Origin: a phage
Reading direction: 5' to 3' (one strand)
Length of the DNA: 44,016 nt
Sequence record: PZ379180.1
The position numbers and the translations under genes are program-made. The notes beneath the pieces are model-generated. The model was not told where the DNA came from. It made no database searches and saw only the letters and a program-made list of their open reading frames with translations. Below, piece by piece: positions 27,053 through 29,613 of this stretch. Numbering within the stretch: the first letter of the stretch is position 1; each line of letters starts with the position of its first letter.

Positions 27053-28473
27053 TTCTTACCTCGTCTCTTCATGTAATTAAGCAACTCTTCCTGTACCGAT
27101 TTCTTCTCGTCAGTACGTGTGGCAACAACCTCGTCCAGCGTGTCTTTAGCGACGATGTGATAGAGGAACACCGGTCGCTCGTGCCCCGCTTGTTTCTGGC
27201 GGACCGGGCCTATACGCTCAACAACCTGCAAATAGTGCTCAAGGTTCCAGCCTTGCGAGATGAACGCCAGATGATGACCCCCGTCCTGTAAATTCAAACC
27301 ATGCCCGGCTGACGCAGGATGCACGCATAAAATCTCGATTTCCCCACGGTTCCACGCTTCCATCTGCTTGTTACCCTTAGCCCCTTTGGCGAATGCCTGG
27401 GCCTGCGGGAATCGCTTAAGGATGCGCTCCAGTTCGTGCTTGAACTGATAAGCCACCAGCAACGGCGCGCCCTGTAACTCCTCGACAATAGACTCCAGCG
27501 CATCCAGTTTCGTGTCGTGCACTTTCTCCCATTCTTTGGTTGCTTCGCCGTCTTCGCCCGTCACATACACGGCACCGGATGCAATCTGCAAGCACTTTGA
27601 GGTCTTCGCCGCAGCGTTAGCCGCTTCAACTTCCCCGCTCTCCAGTTCTGCGAATAACTTCTCCTCCATATCTATGTACGCCTGACGTGCTTTCTTCGGC
27701 AGGTCGATTTCAACCGGCACGATAACAGGCGCTTCACAACCGAACCACTCGGCGGCGTCAATCGTCAGACTGATGTCCTTCATCTTCTGGTGAATCTCGT
27801 TATCTGCACCAGGGCGGGCGTGATATTCACGTGCCATCGCAGATTTTCCTTTCTGTACCGAATTAAACCAGCGGTCGGTGAATGCTGTATACGACGAACC
27901 TAGGCGCTCGCCAGCGTCGATAAACCAGTTCTGGCCCCACAAATCCTTGAGGCCGTTTGGTGACGGTGTACCAGTCAGGTTAATAAAACGCTTAACCCTT
28001 CCGAAAGCCACTTTACTAAGCGCCTTTGCACGCTTGCTACCACCTGAACGGCTGCGGAATGATTTAAGCTTCGTGCTTTCATCTGCAACGATAACCGTAA
28101 AAGGCCAGTCGTCTTTGCCGTAGTAGTCAATCAGCCACTCGATAACCTCATAGTTCGTGCAAACCACGTTAGCATCTGACTCCAGCGCCGCGATGCGGCG
28201 CTTCTCTGAACCAGTCGCATCTACAACACGCAGACATGGGAATTGCCATTTCTCTTGCTCTGCAGGCCACGTACCAGACGCAACCCGCAGCGGGGCGAGG
28301 ATTAACACGCGGTCGTCATCATTAAGTTGGTAGTTTCGGAACAGTCGGTTTAATGCCCACAGTACGCTGCCAGTCTTCCCAGCGCCCATGCTTGCCCATA
28401 TGTTGCAGCGATGGTGCCGCAGCATGAACGAAGTCATGAGCTTTTGGTACTCACGCCTTTGAAACTTACTCAT
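27049..28473 (-). CDS. SNF2-family DNA helicase
   Basis: Walker A GAGKTG, DEST box (VIVADESTKLKS), LTGTP, C-terminal helicase motifs. Confidence 0.85.
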   Translation of the reverse strand: MSKFQRREYQKLMTSFMLRHHRCNIWASMGAGKTGSVLWALNRLFRNYQLNDDDRVLILAPLRVASGTWPAEQEKWQFPCLRVVDATGSEKRRIAALESDANVVCTNYEVIEWLIDYYGKDDWPFTVIVADESTKLKSFRSRSGGSKRAKALSKVAFGRVKRFINLTGTPSPNGLKDLWGQNWFIDAGERLGSSYTAFTDRWFNSVQKGKSAMAREYHARPGADNEIHQKMKDISLTIDAAEWFGCEAPVIVPVEIDLPKKARQAYIDMEEKLFAELESGEVEAANAAAKTSKCLQIASGAVYVTGEDGEATKEWEKVHDTKLDALESIVEELQGAPLLVAYQFKHELERILKRFPQAQAFAKGAKGNKQMEAWNRGEIEILCVHPASAGHGLNLQDGGHHLAFISQGWNLEHYLQVVERIGPVRQKQAGHERPVFLYHIVAKDTLDEVVATRTDEKKSVQEELLNYMKRRGKK

Positions 28474-29395
28474 TTACCGCCCCCATGAATGCCTTTATAA
28501 ATTCAGCAGCTACTTGCGGGACGATGGCATTGCCGTAACCGCGCAATCGTCCCACTCTGGCGGGTATCCCATCAGCCAGCGGGAATGTGCCGGGTTCAAC
28601 TGGCCTGAATTTTCCATCCCGGCATCCGAGCCAGTCTGCCTCTGACCAGAAGCCGTGATGCGGATTGGTCGCGATATTTTCAGTCCCTGCTCCGTTGAGT
28701 AGTCCAGCCTGTCGAAAGTCCGGTCCTTTCCGTCCTTGCGAATCACTGTCTCTCCGCTCCCTCTGTAATCGTTCGCGGTCGGCGTCGCCCATGCCGTCAT
28801 CGCGGCGGCCCACCCCAGTTTGTTCGGTTTCGTCCTGCCGTCTGTGCTGCGCATGTTCACGTCGTTTGTTATCAGTGATACTGCTGGCGTGGGCCAATCT
28901 ATGCGCGCCGAAGAAAAGTCGGTCGCGTTTGTGCGGTGCGCCGACGCTACAAGCTGGGAGTACGGCAAACCCGACGGCGTAGTTTTCTCCTTCCAGGTGA
29001 GTTTGTAAATCGCACATCCACGATTTTGCAATTGCTGGCGCAACCTGCTCCCCAAAGAGGACTGGAGGGCGGCACTCGCTGATGAGGTCGAGGAACACAG
29101 GTGCGAGGTGTCTCGGGTCGAACTGTCCGAGTTGCTTTCCCGCTGCGCTAAACGGTTGGCAAGGCGGGCTTCCCGTCCAGAGAGGCGCATCTTCCGGAAC
29201 TCCCGCAAGTCTGAGCGCGAGAGGCCAGCCGCCGATACCAGCGAAAAAATGACACTGGGTGAATCCGTCGAGGTCTTCTGGCTTAACTTCAGTAATGCTT
29301 CTTTCATCTACAACTCCAAAAGGTATGTGACCCTGTTTTATTAATTCACGCAGCCACGCGGCTGCGCCTTTATCCCATTCGTTGTAATAGTTCAT
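28466..29395 (-). CDS. DNA C5-cytosine methyltransferase (central third apparently out of frame)
   Basis: Motif I FAGIGGW, motif IV GSPPCQPFSAAG, motif VIII APHKRDRLFFGA, motif X GNAIVPQV in this frame; TRD and motif IX lie in overlapping frame 28510..29307. Confidence 0.75.
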   Translation of the reverse strand: MNYYNEWDKGAAAWLRELIKQGHIPFGVVDERSITEVKPEDLDGFTQCHFFAGIGGWPLALRLAGVPEDAPLWTGSPPCQPFSAAGKQLGQFDPRHLAPVFLDLISECRPPVLFGEQVAPAIAKSWMCDLQTHLEGENYAVGFAVLPACSVGAPHKRDRLFFGAHRLAHASSITDNKRREHAQHRRQDETEQTGVGRRDDGMGDADRERLQRERRDSDSQGRKGPDFRQAGLLNGAGTENIATNPHHGFWSEADWLGCRDGKFRPVEPGTFPLADGIPARVGRLRGYGNAIVPQVAAEFIKAFMGAVNE

Positions 29396-29583
29396 TTTGC
29401 CACCAGAACTAACTCTTTACGCCCGAACGCCGTAACGTTACCGGTTACATCTTCGATAACCAGTTTACCGTTCGACTCGACGTACACCGTATCAACGGCA
29501 ACAGGCCGACGGGTCTTAACGTTGAAAATCATGTCGCCAGGTACGATGTCACGTGCTGGTTTGCGGTCATATTCGTGTTTCAT
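29392..29583 (-). CDS. hypothetical protein
   Basis: 63 aa ORF with AAGGAA RBS downstream of promoter-like element. Confidence 0.4.
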   Translation of the reverse strand: MKHEYDRKPARDIVPGDMIFNVKTRRPVAVDTVYVESNGKLVIEDVTGNVTAFGRKELVLVAK

Positions 29584-29613
29584 TTCTCAATTCCTTATAT
29601 TGTTGGTGTAGGA

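Follow-up and report, generated by a model that had tools for sequence, protein, structure and literature searches.

Nested out-of-frame genes on one strand of a phage genome probably encode a two-polypeptide C5-cytosine methyltransferase

The phage sequence record PZ379180.1 (44,016 nucleotides; this whole stretch is the window referred to below) carries a methyltransferase gene on the minus strand, within the replication module. The gene consists of an open reading frame (ORF) of 309 codons, ORF A, which encloses a second ORF of 265 codons, ORF B, on the same strand in the +1 frame. Both ORFs are kept open by selection, the frame under selection alternates from region to region along the gene, and the start of ORF B is conserved among relatives. 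The locus probably encodes a two-polypeptide C5-cytosine methyltransferase, the subunits of which (alpha from ORF A, beta from ORF B) would be read from nested, out-of-frame genes. The features of the two frames, in window coordinates, are as follows.

28466 to 29395, minus strand: ORF A (alpha), 309 amino acids (aa), predicted C5-cytosine methyltransferase catalytic subunit, made up of an N-terminal part that extends through motif VIII, a spacer lacking conservation, and motif X.
29225 to 29248, minus strand: motif I of frame A, FFAGIGGW, read from the translation and aligned with FAGIGG of M.HhaI and Dcm.
29147 to 29170, minus strand: motif IV of frame A, SPPCQPFS, with the catalytic Cys, from the translation, PF00145, and the M.HhaI and Dcm alignments.
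29042 to 29059, minus strand: motif VI of frame A, LFGEQV, from the translation, aligned with M.HhaI and Dcm.
28910 to 28942, minus strand: motif VIII of frame A, GAPHKRDRLFF, from the translation and the M.HhaI and Dcm alignment; frame A is selected here (gene nucleotides [nt] 436 to 495).
28652 to 28900, minus strand: spacer of frame A (aa 166 to 248), hydrophilic, unconserved, and variable in length.
28601 to 28651, minus strand: block FWSEADWLGCRDGKFRP of frame A, kept in frame A of distant lineages and overlapping ITASGQ..TGSDAG of frame B.
28511 to 28540, minus strand: motif X of frame A, GYGNAIVPQV, from the translation and the Dcm alignment; frame A is selected here (gene nt 856 to 930).
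28510 to 29307, minus strand: ORF B (beta), 265 aa, in the +1 frame and wholly inside ORF A, with a leader, a helix-hairpin, WxTPxAxD modules, and a motif-IX-like block.
29305 to 29317, minus strand: start region of ORF B, as seen in the sequence, with GGAG (29314 to 29317), a 6-nt spacer ending in a +1-frame TAG, and ATG (29305 to 29307).
28930 to 29082, minus strand: first dual-coding zone, with the helix (aa 76 to 95) and the hairpin CAIYKLTWKEKTTPSGLPYSQLVASAHRT (aa 98 to 126) of frame B over motifs VI to VIII of frame A, marked by reduced synonymous diversity in A.
28753 to 28896, minus strand: variable region of frame B with the modules WPTPAVS (28876 to 28896) and WATPTANDYRGSG (28753 to 28791), where frame B is selected; putative target-recognition part.
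28552 to 28602, minus strand: motif-IX-like block of frame B, QLNPAHSRWLMGYPPEW, near-invariant in the B family, with a statistically weak alignment to M.HhaI and Dcm.

The frame under selection was read from protein-guided codon alignments of 53 distinct related genes (43 to 100% identical, GC content 45 to 65%), in which the entropy was calculated for each codon position. The most variable position is the third position of A codons at gene nt 1 to 345, 436 to 495, and 856 to 930, whereas it is the third position of B codons at gene nt ~496 to 855. The selected frame passes from A to B at gene nt ~495 (junction 1; window ~28901) and from B back to A at nt ~850 to 856 (junction 2; window ~28540 to 28546), which agrees well with the original prediction, made from the letters of this DNA alone, of frame switches near 28896 to 28906 and 28544 to 28546. 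The functional pieces lie in the order A (motifs I to VIII), B (variable region and motif IX), A (motif X), and frame B is the selected one where a target-recognition-like part and motif IX had been seen in the 265-aa frame, the support for motif IX being weak. Selection on the two frames also overlaps. The synonymous diversity of A drops from ~0.5 to 0.18 to 0.36 at A codons 100 to 150, where B encodes its helix and hairpin (YKLTWKEKTTPSG...ASAHRT), which places selection on B upstream of junction 1 as well. At window positions 28601 to 28651 the synonymous diversity of B is 0.28 to 0.39, compared with 0.5 to 0.64 where B alone is selected, and this block may be a second dual-coding zone.

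Stop codons are avoided in whichever of the two ORFs is not the one selected for its amino acids. Expected numbers were obtained from synonymous shuffles preserving the protein and codon usage of the selected frame. Over the B-selected center (B codons 137 to 255, spacer included; 53 genes), frame A contains no stop against 234 expected, whereas the third frame, taken as a control, contains 437 against 411 expected. Over the B leader (A codons 37 to 100), no stop is observed in frame B against 55 expected, and the control frame has 116 against 138. For 11 lineages less than 60% identical, the joint probability is ~1e-21 for the center and ~1e-5 for the leader. The center is highly variable, and every insertion or deletion found in it keeps both frames. 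ORF B also possesses a conserved start. A +1-frame ATG lies past the last +1 stop, at gene nt 62 to 107, in 52 of the 53 genes; in 25 of those 52 it is preceded at 4 to 16 nt by a Shine-Dalgarno (SD) core (AGGA, GGAG, or GAGG), which occurs in 11% of background windows and before the B ATG is often made of the AGG AGC (Arg-Ser) codons of alpha.

The two-frame layout is widespread. Scanning of viral contigs with frame A yielded 66 loci (43 to 100% identity, GC 45 to 65%), and in essentially all of the complete ones (~60) frame A and the +1 frame are both open over nearly the entire gene, whereas the +2 frame of the same loci is open for 37 to 94 codons only. The nested B measures 220 to 424 codons in the relatives; in the window, it covers 86% of its host gene. 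Frame B as a query retrieved 6084 relatives, and the listed ones have 215 to 342 aa, identity down to 57%, and query coverage of 67 to 100%, nearly all of them 100%. The conserved part of B matches 8681 cluster representatives (50% identity), in which the match usually begins ~90 to 100 residues into a protein of 200 to 460 aa. This two-frame arrangement recurs in Klebsiella phage SBP (Jedunavirus), the T4-like Krischvirus Delraymugoa, Xanthomonas phage PhiXhv-1, Rhodobacter phage RcSalem, and an E. coli prophage. A phage tblastn search with a junction-spanning mosaic, which was not exhaustive, found no single-frame relative, and PF00145 was absent from the 10 longest B-type representatives. 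The "one-piece" full-length tblastn matches to the mosaic proved to be frame B ORFs or two-frame loci.

ORF A is the frame with the catalytic motifs. Motifs I and IV, the joint presence of which in one chain marks a C5-methyltransferase, are both found in it, as are motifs VI, VIII, and X; all but motif VI had been recognized beforehand in the 309-aa frame. Motif X (GYGNAIVPQV) is invariant across the family and aligns to GNSVVVP of Dcm. The Pfam match (PF00145, E 5.6e-17) is confined to aa 68 to 186 and that of TIGR00675 to aa 3 to 184; phrog_363 of PHROG spans the full length, and more than 8000 relatives are named "DNA cytosine methyltransferase." The PADLOC matches of alpha are confined to generic methyltransferase models, and among the 25 listed methyltransferase profiles no alignment extends past aa 191. 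The original prediction had called the center of this frame low in complexity and rich in R, D, and E, and had proposed profile alignment as a check. The center is indeed rich in these residues: aa 166 to 250 comprise 34% R/D/E and 13% hydrophobic residues (17% and 34%, respectively, in the rest of the protein), with no conserved domain, and methyltransferase profiles stop by about aa 190. The spacer could not be aligned across the family. A variable region (target-recognition domain) and motif IX between motifs VIII and X were looked for in alpha and not found, the A center being unconserved and not the selected frame. In two viral contigs (L027 and L028), alpha has 478 aa, with an in-frame insert of ~170 aa after the B stop (gene nt ~925 to 1430); this globular-looking insert (AWEEIKSVCDAKKTRPGEALQQLRLSYGAQIKRFEQTRGF...) separates the RPVE block from motif X, showing that a domain can be accommodated in the spacer of alpha.

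ORF B begins with a leader (aa 1 to ~70) of unconserved amino acids, followed by the helix-hairpin, the invariant residues of which include Y101, W105, K108, T110, P111, G113, A121, and R125. The WxTPxAxD modules number 1 to 6 per relative and their count scales with gene length, the genes varying in length because the number of modules differs. In PHROG, ORF B matches phrog_1008 (E 2e-59) and phrog_31772, both annotated as methyltransferase; no family of Pfam, NCBIfam, or PADLOC was matched, and a search of PDB sequences with a B-family profile gave no match. Only the helix-hairpin is confidently modeled in the AlphaFold prediction of beta (predicted local distance difference test [pLDDT] 75 to 85). 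ORF B further contains a second in-frame ATG (Met40; window 29187 to 29202) with GGAG 9 nt upstream, which could be an alternative beta start, like the internal Met codons in the beta chain of M.EcoHK31I, an E. coli enzyme described below. In some genomes, no stop ends the B frame, and a further domain follows downstream without a change of frame: Dam (PF05869) in P0267, DUF2800/PD-(D/E)XK in P0265, and an HNH/endonuclease-VII-like domain in L023/L067 (668 to 2026). If real, these fusions are independent hints that frame B is translated.

M.HhaI and E. coli Dcm, both of the PF00145 type, have the same catalytic motifs in the same order as the phage locus; unlike in these enzymes, the small-domain segment of the phage locus sits in another frame and has its own start. 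The block QLNPAHSRWLMGYPPEW of ORF B shows the spacing L-x-P-x5-[LV]-M-G-[YF]-P that is also present in M.HhaI (residues 271 to 289) and in LTPRECARLMGF of Dcm, the matches being individually non-significant. A profile of the A-B-A mosaic is collinear with Dcm through motifs I, IV, VI, VIII, IX, and X (HHalign probability 75%). The full mosaic gave no gain over A in Pfam and NCBIfam, and BLASTP against Dcm was uninformative. No counterpart of the WxTPxAxD modules or of the beta helix-hairpin was found in Pfam or among solved structures. M.HhaI is divided into a large and a small domain, and the split into alpha and beta proposed here would match this division. Monomeric C5 methyltransferases that have been split artificially can complement each other (PMC3404938).

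According to the two-chain reading, alpha would be the large catalytic domain, with motifs I to VIII in its N-terminal part, a disordered hydrophilic spacer in which only the length class and the absence of stops would matter, and a C-terminal motif X helix. Beta would start at its own ATG ~30 codons into alpha, and its ~70-aa leader would be unconstrained and dispensable. The helix-hairpin of beta may serve as the element that docks onto alpha, and the WxTPxAxD array, with motif IX after it, may be the target-recognition part that sets the specificity; the variable region and motif IX of beta would together correspond to the small domain of the monomeric enzyme. The two chains would assemble into an active enzyme that methylates the DNA of the phage, presumably as a protection from host restriction. 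We infer that both ORFs are translated and that the chains assemble, and likewise the division of labor and the role of beta in specificity.

Several other explanations can be set against this reading. Chance opening of the two frames is excluded, because the third frame is open for just 37 to 94 codons and stops are far below the shuffle expectation. It speaks for ORF B as a mere by-product of composition and alpha codon usage that the B leader shows no amino acid conservation of its own; however, shuffles that keep the alpha protein and its codon usage predict 55 to 105 stops where 0 to 4 are seen, the other off-frame behaves as expected, and B is open from GC 45% to GC 65%, which leaves such an origin with a negligible probability. 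A more serious possibility, although still an unlikely one, is that alpha is a self-sufficient minimal methyltransferase and B an unrelated protein, for instance, a DNA-binding or anti-defense factor, sharing the same DNA. Alpha keeps all catalytic motifs but IX and has the conserved block FW..C.DGK.RP just before motif X, and B matches no family in Pfam, NCBIfam, or PADLOC and occurs in some genomes as a fusion with other domains. Yet alpha has no conserved variable region from motif VIII to motif X, the terminal block of B is spaced like motif IX, the segments in A-B-A order are collinear with a monomeric enzyme, and nesting kept strictly over thousands of genomes points to a function in common.

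Put end to end, the selected segments amount to a canonical monomeric C5 methyltransferase, as would be the case if a single mosaic polypeptide (A 1 to 165, B ~137 to 254, A ~284 to 309) were made by two programmed frameshifts, one of +1 following motif VIII and one of -1 preceding motif X. However, there is no conserved slippery sequence at either junction: the codons of junction 1 vary at synonymous sites, and an X XXY YYZ heptamer at junction 2 is absent in 12 of 14 lineages and conserved in none. To our knowledge, two efficient ribosomal shifts in one gene would be unprecedented. A mosaic would also lack the helix-hairpin, and it leaves unexplained why the A center and the B leader are free of stops, why the B ATG is conserved together with its SD sequence, and why B is selected upstream of junction 1; we consider it very improbable. 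The original prediction had favored a lesion in which a -1 change makes up for a +1 change, leaving a called ORF that is nonsensical in the middle, and had proposed resequencing of the junctions as a check. The center of the called ORF does resemble an off-frame translation, and the RefSeq annotation pipeline, PGAP, labels the E. coli prophage copy as two pseudogene fragments. Nevertheless, an intact but functionless, decaying gene left by recent changes or by sequencing errors is scarcely conceivable given that the same layout recurs in 463 phage records, in 66 viral loci with identities as low as 43%, and among unrelated genera of phages, that both frames are under purifying selection with stops actively avoided, and that five records are 99.8% identical over the stretch. 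Neither relaxed constraint nor relatives without the layout, as expected of a pseudogene or an artifact, were found, and the ~60 complete loci, the stop avoidance, the B start, and the upstream selection on B contradict a lesion or an error that resequencing would correct; a compensating pair of frameshifts may be the ancient origin of the layout. Translation of both full ORFs would predict the stop avoidance, the B start, and the selection on B ahead of (upstream of) junction 1, none of which is explained by the mosaic or the decaying gene.

Some observations weigh against the two-chain reading. The pooled stop counts overstate independence, the sequences being related, and the per-lineage products correct this only in part. 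A recognizable SD sequence is missing before the B ATG in about half of the genes, and the ~70-aa unconstrained B leader is left unexplained. The assignment of motif IX to B is weak, consisting of the pattern and a weak profile match: a profile of A only reaches the same overall score against Dcm as the mosaic, with nothing opposite motif IX, and Pfam searches with short mosaic or pure-A C-terminal segments detected neither motif IX nor motif X. The mean pLDDT of the AlphaFold models is 37.5 for alpha and 50.1 for beta, poor values that lend no support to the docking and recognition roles; the models are poor because the alignments are shallow. Lastly, in L045, one of the 53 genes, the module region of B is interrupted by a single in-frame stop (gene nt ~680). 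A change of frame by 1 nt near motif IV (gene nt ~246), which breaks both ORFs, was also observed in L018 and L031, two contigs from the same metagenome. These three exceptions could be due to sequencing error or decay.

Nesting of a beta gene within an alpha gene is known for M.EcoHK31I. This heterodimeric enzyme of E. coli HK31, which recognizes YGGCCR, has its beta gene wholly within the alpha gene in another frame; both chains are required for activity, and beta carries motif IX (PMC2836561, PMC3404938). The N-terminal residues of its beta are partly dispensable and affect association, translation can start at internal Met codons, and the predicted target-recognition domain has been assigned to alpha (PMC2836561, PMC3404938). 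The phage locus resembles it in that ORF B is nested in ORF A on the same strand in another frame, a layout kept in relatives, and in that alpha has motifs I to VIII and X and beta would have motif IX, for which the support is weak. They differ in that the inter-motif region of the phage alpha appears to be filler and the conserved modules are on beta, and the phage gene sits in a replication module, whereas M.EcoHK31I belongs to a restriction-modification pair; the likeness considered here is one of layout. What would distinguish the phage case from M.EcoHK31I-type nesting is the placement of the recognition modules on beta and of a spacer on alpha. M.AquI (CYCGRG) is likewise a two-subunit C5 methyltransferase, split in the variable region, and its activity has been reconstituted (PMC3404938). 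Its subunits are consecutive, one with motifs I to VIII together with some of the variable region and the other with the rest and motifs IX and X, whereas the phage beta is nested and motif X is on alpha. Naturally split methyltransferases serve as platforms for targeted methylation (PMC2836561), a toolbox to which a large and varied family whose recognition arrays are modular would add.

Among overlapping genes of phages, the nested same-strand pair Rz/Rz1 of lambda has a similar arrangement: the second gene lies wholly within the other in the +1 frame, and the products act together. Rz1 is short, whereas ORF B covers most of its host gene and the key frame alternates along the DNA. An overlap in which the constrained frame alternates, with two short zones of double constraint and selection elsewhere merely to keep the other frame open, would be a natural system for studying how overlapping genes originate and persist. 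The chances are about even that the phage and prophage genes annotated as "DNA cytosine methyltransferase" in this family, which comprises over 8000 clusters for alpha (90% identity) and 8681 for beta (50% identity), encode obligate two-chain enzymes in general, with specificity residing in an unannotated nested ORF of 1 to 6 modules that lacks a Pfam family and the "variable region" of alpha being a spacer and an off-frame shadow of beta. Were this so, the pair would rank among the longest and most widely distributed of the conserved overlapping genes that phages carry on one strand, and the assignment of the recognition domain of M.EcoHK31I to alpha would deserve to be re-examined.

Most gene callers cannot output a fully nested same-strand gene, and the locus is annotated inconsistently in public records as A only, B only, both, "hypothetical," or pseudogene fragments. 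The stretch from 28300 to 29600 shares 99.8% identity with Escherichia phage Golestan and further Kagunavirus (Guernseyvirinae) genomes; 463 phage records match it, five of them at 99.8% identity. In the Golestan record (L003), frame A alone is annotated, whereas in those of phiEc4 (L070, 575 to 1387) and NTEC3 (L071, 575 to 1237) only frame B is named "methyltransferase." The K1G and K1ind2 records list the two overlapping ORFs under the names "C-specific methylase" and "Mte8-like protein," and the ST20 record has the locus as "hypothetical." In the E. coli ECCTRSRTH03 prophage (L119, 1378 to 2547), RefSeq PGAP gives two partial pseudogene fragments of "DNA cytosine methyltransferase," although neither frame is interrupted, alpha having 389 aa and beta five WxTP modules. 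The warning of the original prediction that specificity predicted from the called ORF alone would mislead is supported. If the recognition part is on beta, inference of the target from the called ORF would use filler, with consequences for REBASE-style assignment and for the reading of phage methylomes. A literature lookup of the name "Mte8" gave no lead. In the open-access papers examined, no description of the phage family was found. None of the open-access papers found to mention EcoHK31I was about phages.

The surroundings of the gene offer some further observations. In the E. coli prophage, a gene for an MT-A70 methyltransferase lies directly upstream of the locus. In the window, the ATG of the methyltransferase gene overlaps the stop of an upstream 63-aa ORF (ATGA; 29392 to 29395), and its final 8 nt (28466 to 28473) overlap the start of the helicase gene, an arrangement that suggests a translationally coupled operon.

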